From Chloroflexota bacterium (lineage in GTDB: Bacteria > Chloroflexota > Dehalococcoidia > Lucifugimonadales > UBA3495), in assembly GCA_027623675.1 (NCBI GenBank), contig JAQBVF010000018.1, positions 13,356 to 77,355 on the forward strand: DNA of 64,000 bases, read 5' to 3'. This document shows, in pieces, positions 55,501-58,500 of this stretch. Made by a program: the position numbers. Within the stretch, counting starts at the first letter, position 1. Each line of letters opens with the position of its first letter.

Positions 55501-58500
55501 CTGCTTTCCAGACCCTGTGGGGGTTTACCATCGCTTCGGACGCAGCATTCTCCCCAACTTCCGAGGATGAGGTTGACGCGGAGATAGCGCGGAGATTGTC
55601 CAAACCGCTGAGATACTACGACGGCGAGAGTCACCGCAATATGCACGCTCTGACCCGTTTCCAGCGGGAGGGCCTGAAGAGCGAGACCAGGGTCAACACG
55701 GACGCCGACCCGGTGTTCATGATTTAGGTGGCGGCACAGCCGCGGTTAAGACCTGCCGGTTACGGCGGGAATCTGGTTAATCAACAAAAAAACGGAGCGC
55801 TGAAGAGCGCTCCGTTTTGCTTTCGCCTTTATGTATCCTTGCTGTTTACGGGCGGATGAGCACGCGAGTGGTGCCATCAGGGTCGGTCCTCTTGGTCATG
55901 ACCTCGTGTCCGGCCTTCTCGGCCCATAGCGAGACATCGTAGATGTTCAAGGCGTCGGCCAGGATGGCTTCCACGAAGGAATCCTTGTCCATGTCCACCT
56001 GGCGGGTCAGGGCGGCGATGACGCCGGCGCAACTCTTGCCCCGGCCGTCGATGACGATCCAGCCGCCGGAGCCAGTCACCGGTATCTCCTCGCCGTCGTA
56101 GACGTCAACCTCGCCGCTCTTGCGGAGGTCCAGTTGGCGCTTGAATTCAGCCACTGCCTCCCAGGCCACGGCCCGGTCGCGTTCGCCGTTGCCGCAGACC
56201 GCCCCCCGCACGCCGACGATGTCGGGGTTGATGCGGGCCAGTTCGTCCAGGTCGGCAATCTTCAAGTGGCCGGACAGAGCCGTGCTCATGCCCAGTTCCT
56301 TGCCCTTGAGCACGATGTCTTTCAGTACCGGCTCGGACATGAAATCGAACAGGTTGCGGCCGTCCTTGGTCAGGGTGTCGATGAGGAACCCGTCACACTC
56401 GCCGTCCTTGGCCAGCTCAACCATGCACATGGGGTCGAGGCCGTTCTCGAACATCTCGTTATCGGCGAAGACCGACCCGACGAGTTTGGTGTTGAAACCT
56501 TCCAGGGCCATCCGTGACTCTCTGAGGACCTCAACCGCCTGGTCGTAGTTGGCTTCTTGAAATCCAACTTTCACCGACGTGGCGTCCATCACGGCGGCGG
56601 CGTACACGGCCATGGCCACTGTGCCGGGCTGGTTGGGAACCACGCCCAGTGTGACGCTGACATGCTTCTCCACCGGCATGATTCCCCTGACGGCTTTAAC
56701 GATGTTGGGGTGGCCGGAACCCACCAGTGCTTCTTGCAGGTTCTTGACGTCCACCACGTCGGCGCCACCCTGCTCGGCCTCCATCGCCTCTTCCATATTC
56801 TGGACGCTGACCATGAGCAGCATGCCCGAGGCGAAGTTATTGTTTCCGTCGAGCCATGATCCGCGGGACCGGGTGGGTTGGGCGTGGATCACGGGAGGCG
56901 CTGGGACGGGCTTTAGGGGCTGTAGTTCTTCTCTCAATTCAGACTTCTCCACTGGTGATAGATCAAATAATGGTGGCCGTACCGACCCGGCCGACATGCC
57001 CATGAGCTCGCCCCAATGCTTGACCATGGAGACGGGCAGAGCGCCGTTGAACTTGGTCTGGGTCCTTGTCCACCAGGTATCGGACAGTTCCTTCAGGCGG
57101 CGCAGTTTGTTATCGTAAAAGGTCTCGTCCAGGTCGCCTCGGCAGGCCCGGTCGATCCACTGGACGTAGTTGTTTACGCCCGGCACGTCGAAGCGCCAGT
57201 CGGACGTGTTGGCGAACATGGCCTGTTGTTGGATGCCCAGTTCCTGGCCCTTGAAGAATATCCACTCGTCGGGGGTGCTGATGACGTGGTCTTTACCGAG
57301 GGAAAGATGGGTTTCGATGGATATCTGCTGATTGAAGCTGGCCTCTTTCACTCCAACAACGTTGGGGATGCTGCAGACCCGGCCTAGGCCGTAGGGGCTC
57401 ATGATGATGCCGAACTGGGGCGAGTTGTAGAACATTATCGCCAGATTGGTGTTGTCCGCCAGTATCCGCACGAACTCAACCACCTGGTCCTCGGTCTTGG
57501 TGGCCATATAGGACGGTGCGACGATCAGAAGGTCAAAACCCGTGGCCTCGGCATGTTGGGCCAGCGAGACCATGTCAGAAGCTGAGGTGTGGGTGACGTG
57601 GGCGCCGATGGGCCATTTGCCGGCGGCTTCTTCGGCGGTGGCGTCCATAACCTGGATACGCTCATCGTAGGTCAGGCTCCAGAACTCCCCCATGTTCCAG
57701 GTGCAGCCGGCGCCGGTGGTGCCAAGGCTACGAACGTGGCGTATGTTCCGCTTGATCCCGTCAACGTCGATGCGGTTGTCGGGAGTGAAGGGAGTGATGA
57801 GGGTGGTCCATTGTCCCTTGATGGTTTCCCATGCCCAATCCTGGGCCTCGTGTTTCTTATAGCTCGCCATTGGCTCCATGCTCCGTGAGTTAATGTGGTA
57901 AGGTCCGGTCTATCGCACGGTGATTGGTTGCAGCCCTGATTGTTGGCGCGGCGTTACCGCTAATCCTCGTCGCCATATTGCTCCTTTAGAGAGTCTACCA
58001 CTGCCGGGTCGGCCAGGGTTGTGGTGTCGCCCAAGGCCCGGCCCTCCGCCACGTCCCGCAGCAGCCGGCGCATGATCTTGCCGCTGCGGGTCTTGGGCAG
58101 TTCGGCGGCGAAGATGATGTCGTCGGGGCGGGCCATGGCGCCGATCTTGCCGGCCACATGGGCCTTCAATTCGGTGATGACGTCTTCGGACATGCTCACG
58201 GTGTCTTTGAGGGTAACAAATGCGACCACCGCCTGGCCCTTGATCTCGTGGGCCTTGCCGATGCAGGCGGCCTCGGCGACCTTGGGGTTGTCCACCAAGG
58301 CGCTTTCGACCTCCATGGTGCCGATTCGGTGGCCGGAGACGTTGATCACATCGTCCACCCGGCCCAGGAGCCAGAAATCGCCGTCCTCGTCAAGCTTGGC
58401 GCCGTCGGCGGTGAAGTAGATATCCGGATAGCGCGACCAATATTGCTCCACGTAGCGCTCTTCGTCTCCGTAGATGGTGCGGAGCATGGACGGCCAGGGT

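Follow-up and report, generated by a model that had tools for sequence, protein, structure and literature searches.

To our knowledge, the menaquinone ring is made by just two routes, the classical Men pathway and the futalosine pathway, both of which start from chorismate. In the futalosine pathway MqnA-E carry out the early steps and MqnP, MqnL and MqnM the late ones, and many respiring lineages show neither route. A complete menaquinone pathway is reported for only 28 of 97 archaea in PMC3914697, and the names MqnP, MqnL and MqnM are used here as in PMC4746308.

The window analyzed here, a 64,000-nt stretch of DNA from a Chloroflexota bacterium, carries on its minus strand a gene encoding a DHDPS-like aldolase, an MfnB-type 4-HFC-P synthase and a TusA-type domain in a single chain. 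The fusion represents one state of a wider three-component module, whose genomic context suggests that it may provide the early reactions that form the head group of a menaquinone-type prenylquinone, a proposal that we regard as evenly balanced. In the openly accessible part of the literature, MfnB was not found in connection with SAR202, dihydrodipicolinate synthase or TusA, nothing relevant was recovered for UPF0264, DUF556, PF04476 or COG1891, and a third or novel menaquinone pathway was not found.

The fused gene, its homologues and its distribution

Features of the fused gene are listed in Table 1. The coordinates of the survey's finding count along the window, and lowering them by 13355 leads to no matching gene. 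Translation from the first in-frame ATG yields an ORF of 677 aa (55846..57879, minus strand); the start at 57870 is preferred, since homologue alignments begin at residue 4, as does the ESM Atlas record. Residue numbers throughout are those of the 677-aa form, and subtracting 3 gives the 674-aa numbering, in which Cys617 is the Cys614 reported in the survey's finding.

Table 1. Features of the fused gene and its upstream neighbor (positions in the 64,000-nt window; residues of the 677-aa form).
Feature	Position	Strand	Basis and remarks
Fused DHDPS-like/MfnB/TusA-like gene	55846..57870	-	ORF list and translation; 674 aa from ATG at 57870; stop codon inside range
DHDPS/NAL-family class I aldolase domain	56920..57819	-	Residues 21-320; Pfam 2.4e-27
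MfnB-type (4-HFC-P synthase) TIM-barrel domain	56143..56817	-	Residues 355-579; Pfam 4.3e-56
Variable Gly/Asn/Ser-rich linker, MfnB to TusA-like domain	56056..56142	-	About residues 580-608; length and sequence differ among homologues
TusA-type domain	55852..56055	-	Residues 609-676; Pfam 20.2 bits, below cut-off
Acetyl-CoA-synthetase-type AMP-forming ligase (context only)	57960..59933	-	Pfam; directly upstream, same strand as the fusion gene

That one chain joins these three domains, as the survey had proposed, is confirmed, and the fusion is real and conserved. All of the best 120 listed database proteins carry both PF00701 and PF04476 matches, with 70-90% identity over 99-100% of the query, while a PF01206 match is present in 3 of them. 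An ESM Atlas search returned MfnB clusters only. An Rfam scan of positions 50000-64000 for an RNA leader or riboswitch gave only two matches, both at chance level. AMP-forming ligases of other subfamilies than the upstream one recur beside the module at related loci, as assessed by tblastn.

Both parts of the module were recovered at 67 bacterial SAR202-type loci, fused in 24 and encoded by adjacent separate aldolase and MfnB-TusA genes in 43, so that the fused chain is a minority form rather than the typical SAR202 state. At genome loci the aldolase gene directly adjoins MfnB-TusA in 20 of 20 cases. Among 80 metagenome loci, most of which resemble those of the Thermoplasmata MAGs, TusA follows MfnB in 77, the remaining three ending within 105 nt. 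At archaeal-type loci the two parts lie side by side in 22 of 30, mostly in reverse order, and some archaea harbor the module as two or three neighboring genes arranged unlike those of SAR202. All three components occur together in MAGs of Thermoplasmata, Micrarchaeota and Marsarchaeota, with enzyme parts 46-62% identical, and the earlier description of the trio as a hallmark of SAR202 is therefore too narrow.

The module is present in all 14 genomes sampled from the window's family and in the window genome itself (91.4% complete), in 182 of 301 genomes of the order and in 2 of 401 genomes of an even phylum sample, one of which is the window genome. These frequencies follow the trend of the distribution tables that accompanied the survey's finding. 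In two archaeal samples the module is rare (4/201 and 5/201 genomes). A complex prediction for the split Micrarchaeota trio (MfnB, aldolase and TusA partner) scored 0.10 against a mark of 0.32 and was counted neither way.

Domains and conserved residues

The MfnB domain matches 4HFCP_synth (PF04476) with 190.7 bits against a gathering threshold of 22.4, over profile positions 1-227 of 228. Alignment to PDB 4rc1 (MJ1099) is full length (6.1e-44) and pairs Asp377, Lys379 (codon 56743-56745), Lys437, Asp501 and Lys505 with Asp25, Lys27, Lys85, Asp151 and Lys155 of MJ1099, the first four of which we take to be catalytic positions; none of the five varies in any of 82 sequences, bacterial and archaeal alike. 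PMC11365854 describes Lys155 as catalytic and Arg217 as a capping-loop residue of MfnB, and the residue aligned with Arg217 is also kept in the fusion. With the whole profile covered and every MfnB catalytic position present, the claim of a full MfnB domain stands. The domain may form 4-HFC-P from two molecules of glyceraldehyde-3-phosphate.

The aldolase domain matches DHDPS (PF00701) with 95.8 bits (gathering threshold 22.1) and is modeled with a pLDDT of 93.5. The Schiff-base Lys178 (codon 57346-57348), Tyr151 (codon 57427-57429), Trp61 and Met63-Gly64-Glu65 show no variation among 91 sequences (65 from bacteria, 26 from archaea). The motif W61-x-M-G-E occupies the pyruvate-carboxylate loop, where DapA has GTTGE, and the homologue alignment revealed an extra invariant motif, T-S-D-W-R-F-D. 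In profile searches against PDB sequences, NCBIfam matching and structure alignment, no characterized subfamily stands out as the closest relative; each of the three leaves DapA, YagE and NAL tied, in the structure alignment with Z 33-34 and an rmsd of about 2.1 Å over about 287 residues. Hydratase-aldolases of the NahE type were absent from those match lists, an absence that excludes nothing.

The TusA-type domain of the window protein falls short of the Pfam PF01206 cut-off of 28.6 bits (E-value 5.5e-4), and the weak call nevertheless appears to be real. Four of five archaeal orthologues, free-standing or fused, score above the cut-off (33.7, 29.9, 30.7 and 38.7 bits) and one below it (26.0 bits). 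Cys617 (codon 56029-56031) belongs to the motif D-G-x-G-K-x-C-(A/S)-G and does not vary across the aligned domains (76 of 76). The model adopts a beta-alpha-beta-alpha-beta-beta topology with Cys617 opening helix 1, and among solved structures E. coli YhhP/TusA ranks first (1dcj; probability 1.00, E-value 5.6e-3), with no match at E-values of 0.001 or less. Together, these observations support the proposed TusA-like domain with its cysteine. The modeled linker stretch at residues 591-604 has a pLDDT below 50. Near the module, neither a cysteine desulfurase nor a Dsr/Tus partner was observed.

Gene neighborhoods and quinone routes

The survey had noted that neighboring genes give no hint of function. 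That is true of the window alone; menaquinone-type prenylquinone biosynthesis is suggested by related loci and by phyletic patterns. Operon-like clusters of the module with UbiD/UbiA/UbiX-type late menaquinone genes (MqnL/MqnP/MqnM) occur at three SAR202 and four Micrarchaeota-type loci. At SAR202 locus L019, MqnL (TIGR03701, 612.7 bits against a cut-off of 495.9), MqnP and UbiX precede the fused module; at L020 the aldolase, MfnB-TusA, MqnL, MqnP and UbiX genes are contiguous on a single strand; and at L003 MqnL, MqnP and UbiX lie near the module on the opposite strand. The Micrarchaeota-type loci L040, L111 and L052/L053 combine UbiX, MfnB, TusA, aldolase, UbiD and UbiA. Also, a MenA-like prenyltransferase gene stands head to head with the aldolase gene at six further archaeal loci. 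By hand comparison, 31 genomes belonging to 16 families have MqnL at a distance of 1-22 kb from the module; MqnL is distant or on another contig in the window genome and other fused-form genomes. Conserved neighbors in SAR202 are mostly housekeeping genes (RecG, DegV, FakA, HemA, prephenate dehydratase, TrkA/H), and in the 80 metagenome loci a search for UbiD, UbiA, UbiX and MenA-like genes within 10 kb of the module gave a single weak match. ThiL/ThiE lie beside the module at one locus; a role as alternative thiazole synthase was dropped, given that the window genome encodes ThiG (351.9 bits). A pyridoxal-type ring expansion was another idea considered.

Of the 301 order genomes for which the module was counted, 245 have MqnL and 72 have PF02621 (MqnA/D). 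Module genomes retain MqnL, and 165 of the 182 have no PF02621 match; of the 57 PF02621 genomes outside the window's family, just two also have the module. Among 101 genomes of the order searched for MenD, 10 encode it, and none of these ten has the module, MqnL or PF02621. Module, MqnA/D family and MenD are thus almost mutually exclusive across the order (301 genomes; MenD among 101), a complementary pattern that may reflect few clade-level events, since related genomes are not independent and the counts were made without a species tree. PF02621 and MenD are also absent from five of five archaeal module genomes.

The window genome encodes MqnL-MqnP-UbiX, with best scores below the cut-offs for MqnC (TIGR03699, 333.2 against 428.1 bits), MenD (73.6 against 244.2) and MenB (211.6 against 342.7). 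It also contains two weak PF02621 matches of one paralogue type. In its family, module and PF02621-family genes occur together in 14 of 14 genomes and in the window genome; these PF02621 matches are weak (90-143 bits), of a single paralogue type and without MqnC. Typing of PF02621 proteins with NCBIfam was uninformative, since canonical MqnA/D-type controls matched no model either. Another family has MqnL without module or PF02621 in five genomes, and without MenD in three.

Proposed role, alternatives and comparison with known systems

Because the module occurs where the early known steps are missing, it may belong to a new menaquinone route. In this proposal it would replace the early futalosine (MqnA-D) or classical Men steps and feed MqnP, MqnL and MqnM. 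More specifically, and with confidence somewhat short of even, the trio could be central to a third way of making the aromatic head group of menaquinone, or of a related and perhaps sulfur-bearing prenylquinone, that does not draw on chorismate: triose phosphates and pyruvate would provide the head group, and MqnP/MqnL/MqnM or a MenA-like enzyme would complete the synthesis. Such a route would operate in most dark-ocean SAR202 and in scattered Thermoplasmata, Micrarchaeota and Marsarchaeota.

The chemistry might proceed as follows. The MfnB domain, whose catalytic residues are conserved, would join two triose phosphates to 4-HFC-P or a close analogue. The enamine formed by Lys178 of the aldolase with pyruvate could then add to the furan aldehyde, yielding a 2-oxo acid; its carboxylate would be what a UbiD-type decarboxylase takes off at a later stage. 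Cys617, on its flexible linker, may hand over persulfide sulfur or covalently carry an intermediate. More ring chemistry, prenylation and decarboxylation would follow, as suggested by gene neighbors and co-occurrence. The putative chemistry, the role of the TusA domain and the product are all proposed in this sense. Menaquinone being devoid of sulfur, the TusA part is left unexplained by the quinone reading, and the carbon count also speaks against it: two trioses and pyruvate give C9, dihydroxynaphthoate is C11, and no route between them is evident. Further points that weigh against it are the possible clade-level origin of the complementary pattern, the joint presence of module and PF02621-family genes in the window's family, the family that has MqnL with none of the three early routes, the near lack of quinone genes at the metagenome loci, the distant MqnL of fused-form genomes, the rarity of the module in the archaeal samples and the incompleteness of the window genome.

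The domain content and the invariant cysteine would suit a sulfur-bearing product. The rival reading, which follows the survey's finding, is a furan-derived, possibly sulfur-bearing, new small metabolite or cofactor apart from quinones; the Mqn link would then be inherited synteny and clade structure. The housekeeping neighbors at most loci and the lack of quinone genes within 10 kb at the 80 metagenome loci agree with this explanation, and few evolutionary events could have yielded the complementary distribution. We consider it somewhat unlikely, given that the UbiD/UbiA/UbiX clusters are operon-like and recur, with their genes ordered differently, in both bacteria and archaea, that a MenA-like neighbor occurs in a third lineage, and that late Mqn genes are kept in module genomes from which every known early route is missing.

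Three further readings appear less probable still. One of these has the aldolase act ahead of MfnB, cleaving a KDPG-like 2-keto-3-deoxy sugar acid phosphate to pyruvate and glyceraldehyde-3-phosphate and passing the triose on. KD(P)G-type aldolases do belong to the DHDPS family, a weak NCBIfam match to an archaeal KD(P)G aldolase was obtained (4.8e-11) and the fusion order, aldolase then MfnB, fits a supply role. This is improbable, since all characterized subfamilies score far under their cut-offs and tie with each other, glyceraldehyde-3-phosphate is a central metabolite that needs no private supply, most archaeal loci have the reverse gene order and each furan takes two trioses. A standard role in making methanofuran or methylofuran for a C1 pathway linked to H4MPT would account for the complete MfnB profile and its catalytic residues. 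Such use of the module is very improbable, as FTR was detected in none of 151 genomes of the order and both FTR and MCH are missing from the window genome at its 91.4% completeness; the earlier statement that the methanofuran pathway is absent is upheld to this extent, MfnA and MfnC-F lying outside the search. The fusion protein also misses the NCBIfam MfnB equivalog cut-offs (NF002573, 192.1 against 341 bits; NF002575, 183.6 against 304), and module MfnBs cluster apart from other MfnBs. Finally, a chance fusion of the housekeeping DapA of lysine synthesis is barely credible. The sole other DHDPS-family gene of the window genome, on contig C6, likewise stays under the DapA cut-off (143.8 against 206.15 bits), which would leave room for it; yet the aldolase domain reaches just 82 bits with that equivalog (TIGR00674), has the exchanged W-x-M-G-E loop and an invariant Phe156 at the position of Arg138, which presumably binds aspartate semialdehyde in DapA, and always accompanies MfnB-TusA.

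If the quinone reading is true, a third route in SAR202, among the most abundant deep-ocean groups, would alter genome-based inference of respiration, MfnB chemistry would have a second biological use and a sulfur-carrier domain would be found acting together with aldolases.

Compared with MJ1099, the MfnB of the fusion shares the full-length match, the catalytic residues, Lys155 and Arg217. It differs in that it shares just about 35-44% identity with other MfnB representatives, and in that module MfnBs form a clade of their own apart from 20 of these, invariably precede a TusA-type domain or gene and occur in genomes without FTR and MCH. The module aldolase has the common fold of DapA, NAL and YagE and retains their Schiff-base lysine and catalytic tyrosine, but is only 16-23% identical to them and is set apart by its loop, by T-S-D-W-R-F-D and, relative to DapA, by Phe156. 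The third domain has the same small fold as TusA, YeeD (TsuB) and SirA-like proteins, and likewise places the cysteine where helix 1 begins, at its N-terminal end (top matches among solved structures 1dcj, 3lvj_C, 8k1r_B and 3hz7); its motif is C-(A/K)-G where that of TusA is C-P-x-P, and unlike TusA it is either linked to an aldolase-type enzyme or encoded immediately behind one. With respect to the futalosine and Men pathways, the module clusters and co-occurs with the late MqnL, MqnP and MqnM or a MenA-like gene, whereas none of its three families participates in either pathway, and in contrast to both chorismate-starting routes the proposed one would begin from triose phosphate and pyruvate.

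Architecture of the fused gene and forms of the module

Read from its first ATG, the fused gene encodes 677 residues, the numbering used here; the start at 57870 given in the survey's finding (674 aa) is likelier, as the homologues and the Atlas record both begin at residue 4, and the scores reported there were all reproduced. A variable Gly/Asn/Ser linker separates the MfnB domain from the TusA-type domain. On the NCBIfam MfnB equivalogs the protein reaches 192 and 184 bits, under their cut-offs, and on the DapA equivalog 82 against a cut-off of 206.

The MfnB domain aligns with the solved MfnB MJ1099 (PDB 4rc1) at 6.1e-44 and keeps its Asp25, Lys27, Lys85 and Asp151, which we take to be catalytic. 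Lys155 and Arg217 of MJ1099 are likewise kept in this alignment; PMC11365854 describes MfnB Lys155 as catalytic and Arg217 as a capping-loop residue that may take part in binding the substrate. None of Asp377, Lys379, Lys437, Asp501 and Lys505 varies across 82 module sequences, of which 63 are bacterial and 19 archaeal.

The cysteine of the C-terminal domain is invariant in two alignments (29/29 and 76/76). The domain is modelled as beta-alpha-beta-alpha-beta-beta with this cysteine at the start of helix 1, and among solved structures it matches E. coli YhhP/TusA, YeeD and a SirA-like protein best, none at E <= 0.001. The Pfam TusA cut-off is passed by four of five archaeal orthologues tested, and several archaeal-type loci carry a separate small TusA gene. 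In eight loci whose MAGs are titled Thermoplasmata or Thermoplasmatales, a TusA ORF in another frame overlaps the end of the MfnB gene; this suggests translational coupling, or perhaps a frameshift that is either programmed or due to sequencing.

The fused gene represents one form of a broader module of aldolase, MfnB and TusA-type domain. Both module parts occur in 67 of 70 bacterial loci, fused in 24 and split in 43, with the aldolase preceding MfnB in every case; in 20 of 20 loci compared, the gene directly upstream of MfnB-TusA is that of the aldolase. PF04476 was found in 182 of 301 genomes evenly sampled from the order (92/179 among high-quality ones), in open frames of about 680-730 or about 325-370 aa, and in 2 of 401 genomes across the phylum, the window's own included. 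Scanning all species genomes with P0136, a distant aldolase relative, gave 30 loci and traced the same trio to MAGs that bear the titles Thermoplasmata, Micrarchaeota, Marsarchaeota, Thermoprotei, 'archaeon' and, once, 'bacterium', with identities to the window protein of 46-52% (aldolase), 56-62% (MfnB) and 30-41% (TusA). Both enzymes stand side by side in 22 of these (19 with MfnB first, one with the aldolase first, two on opposite strands); the other eight are without MfnB, and four of the five genomes searched among them have it elsewhere, with TusA next in each. Archaeal samples contain the module only rarely (4/201 genomes in the phylum of genome G700, 5/201 in the class of G703). Of 80 metagenome loci, 77 have TusA after MfnB and the remaining three break off within 105 nt; an adjacent aldolase is present in 61, 12 have too little flank, and seven lack the aldolase despite at least 2 kb of flank. 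A FastTree phylogeny groups the module MfnBs in a single clade that excludes 20 other MfnB representatives; within it the bacterial sequences are monophyletic and the archaeal are not (support 0.63).

Two module copies occur in some SAR202 genomes (G533, G643), and one MAG, 'SAR202 cluster bacterium Io17-Chloro-G9', is the named source of both proteins P0089 and P0118. At locus L088 the MfnB part of the fused gene (9015-9748) is split over three frames, suggestive of either an assembly error or a pseudogene.

Coordinates and composition of features at the window and at compared loci (L)
Feature	Location	Strand	Detail
Fused gene ORF	window 55846..57879	minus	677 aa from first ATG
DHDPS-family domain	residues 21-320		Pfam 2.4e-27
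4HFCP_synth/MfnB domain, complete	residues 355-579		Pfam 4.3e-56
TusA match, sub-threshold	residues 609-676		Pfam 20.2 bits, cut-off 28.6
PF02621 proteins, window's genome	C27:9953-10669; C39:26068-26799		L108, L109
SAR202 cluster	L019		MqnL, MqnP, UbiX-family flavin prenyltransferase, then fused module
SAR202 cluster	L020	one strand	aldolase, MfnB-TusA, MqnL, MqnP, UbiX; contiguous
SAR202 cluster	L003	other strand	MqnL, MqnP, UbiX near module
Micrarchaeota-type clusters	L040, L111, L052/L053		UbiX, DUF981 protein, MfnB, TusA, aldolase, UbiD, UbiA
DUF981 protein between UbiX and MfnB	L040 3075-3701; L111 8412-9002; L052 1332-1961		Micrarchaeota-type
Overlapping TusA ORFs	L028, L029, L034, L035, L038, L039, L042, L045		around positions 7560-7960
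Prephenate dehydratase near module	L002, L006-L009, L013, L014, L021
AMP-forming ligase	window 57960-59933	minus	beside module
AMP-forming ligases	L018, L059, L060, L068, L096; L029 9097-10839 and relatives; L190, L197		beside module

Early quinone routes and neighbouring genes

The module, MqnL (E <= 1e-60) and PF02621 (MqnA/MqnD) were scored in the same 301 genomes. MqnL occurs in 245 and PF02621 in 72; by manual cross-tabulation 165 genomes have the module without a PF02621 match, 55 the reverse, and 64 neither. Outside f1, the window's family, PF02621 occurs in 57 genomes, usually as two strong copies, which in genome G413 flank MqnC (460 against a cut-off of 428.1); only two of the 57 (G456, G583) have the module. 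MenD was found in 10 of 101 genomes, none of them among those with module, MqnL or PF02621.

Module and quinone genes in four families of the order (genomes with gene/genomes searched)
Family	Module	MqnL	PF02621	MenD
f105	14/14	14/14	0/14	0/2
f99	13/14	13/14	0/14	0/2
f96	0/14	14/14	13/14	0/2
f89	0/13	0/13	0/13	2/2

Family f1 has the module together with weak PF02621 genes (90-143 bits), MqnC not being alongside. In the window's genome both PF02621 proteins are similar to just one of the two canonical MqnA/MqnD paralogues, MqnC, MenD and MenB give nothing above cut-off, and MqnL-MqnP-UbiX stand in a row on contig C39. PF02621 and MenD are absent from five archaeal module genomes. Family f87 (G404, G461, G496, G524, G548) has 2-3 UbiD/MqnL-type genes, no module and no PF02621, with MenD in 0/3 genomes. 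Module genomes keep the late carboxylate-removing menaquinone steps and lack the known ring-making routes.

Tight clusters of the module with late futalosine genes occur in three SAR202 genomes from three different families; the MqnL of L019 scores 612.7 bits on TIGR03701 (cut-off 495.9). Coordinates compared by hand put MqnL at a distance of 1-22 kb from the module in 31 genomes belonging to 16 families; in the window's fused-form family it is far off or on another contig. The UbiD of the Micrarchaeota-type clusters has TIGR03701 as its best model (439 bits, under cut-off), and six further archaeal loci pair the aldolase gene head to head with that of a MenA-like prenyltransferase (123.9 bits, under cut-off). 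PMC4746308 names MqnP, MqnL and MqnM and proposes that they act in prenylating and decarboxylating 1,4-dihydroxy-6-naphthoate. Within 10 kb of the module, the 80 metagenome loci hold no quinone genes apart from one weak match.

SAR202 module neighbours are for the most part housekeeping genes, and those in the window (spermidine synthase, Acs-type ligase, MFS transporter, luciferase-like monooxygenase) are uninformative. Many split-form SAR202 loci carry prephenate dehydratase about 1 kb downstream, encoded on the opposite strand, and in L003 EPSP synthase lies near the module; this proximity may be plain synteny. AMP-forming ligases of different subfamilies adjoin the module in several lineages. 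The window and its close relatives L088, L093 and L100 have one of Acs type, other fused-form loci have a 39-40% paralogue downstream, and in Thermoplasmata-type loci a 31-33% ligase lies downstream of the aldolase, with an aldehyde dehydrogenase and an Fe-S flavoprotein after it. They could serve a CoA-activation step, or lie there by chance in ligase-rich genomes. An AAA_17 protein of 343-351 aa recurs near the Micrarchaeota-type clusters.

Possible roles of the module

Methanofuran synthesis is an unlikely role: the window's genome (91.4% complete) has a single PF04476 gene, a search of it that left MfnA and MfnC-F aside found neither FTR nor MCH, and FTR turned up in none of 151 genomes from the order. 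Beyond the directly observed architecture, residue conservation, gene clusters and phyletic pattern, the simplest account, to which we give roughly an even chance, is that the module supplies early steps of menaquinone-type synthesis, because the late genes are kept without a known ring route and the clusters occur in two domains of life. MfnB would make 4-HFC-P, the aldolase would add pyruvate to its aldehyde, and the pyruvate carboxylate would be the group later removed by the UbiD-type enzyme; Cys617 may carry sulfur or an intermediate.

Several points count against such early quinone steps. Menaquinone contains no sulfur, and C6 plus C3 gives C9, against the C11 of dihydroxynaphthoate. The phyletic pattern may rest on few clade-level events, f1 combines the module with weak PF02621 genes, and f87 has MqnL with none of the three early routes; the metagenome loci lacking nearby quinone genes and the rarity in archaea weigh in the same direction. 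That the module instead makes a furan or sulfur metabolite unrelated to quinones is possible but less likely, given the clusters with late futalosine genes. Searches of the open-access literature turned up papers neither on this fusion nor on a third route to menaquinone.

The aldolase domain and characterised relatives

The window's genome has one other DHDPS-family gene (C6:12890-13747; L022 1474-2415, minus strand), which scores 143.8 bits on the DapA equivalog, under the cut-off of 206.15, and has a quinone reductase and a haloacid dehalogenase next to it; this 91%-complete MAG showed no clear DapA.

In the module aldolase the Schiff-base Lys178 and Tyr151 are present in 91 of 91 sequences, and the domain model (pLDDT 93.5) superposes equally on DapA, YagE and sialic-acid lyases (Z 33-34). 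The GTTGE motif of DapA is replaced by W-x-M-G-E, and an invariant Phe occupies the position of DapA Arg138. Because the two catalytic-type residues are kept, the DapA motifs are replaced and the fold matches are equal, the domain is predicted to be a competent pyruvate-type class I aldolase outside every characterised subfamily.
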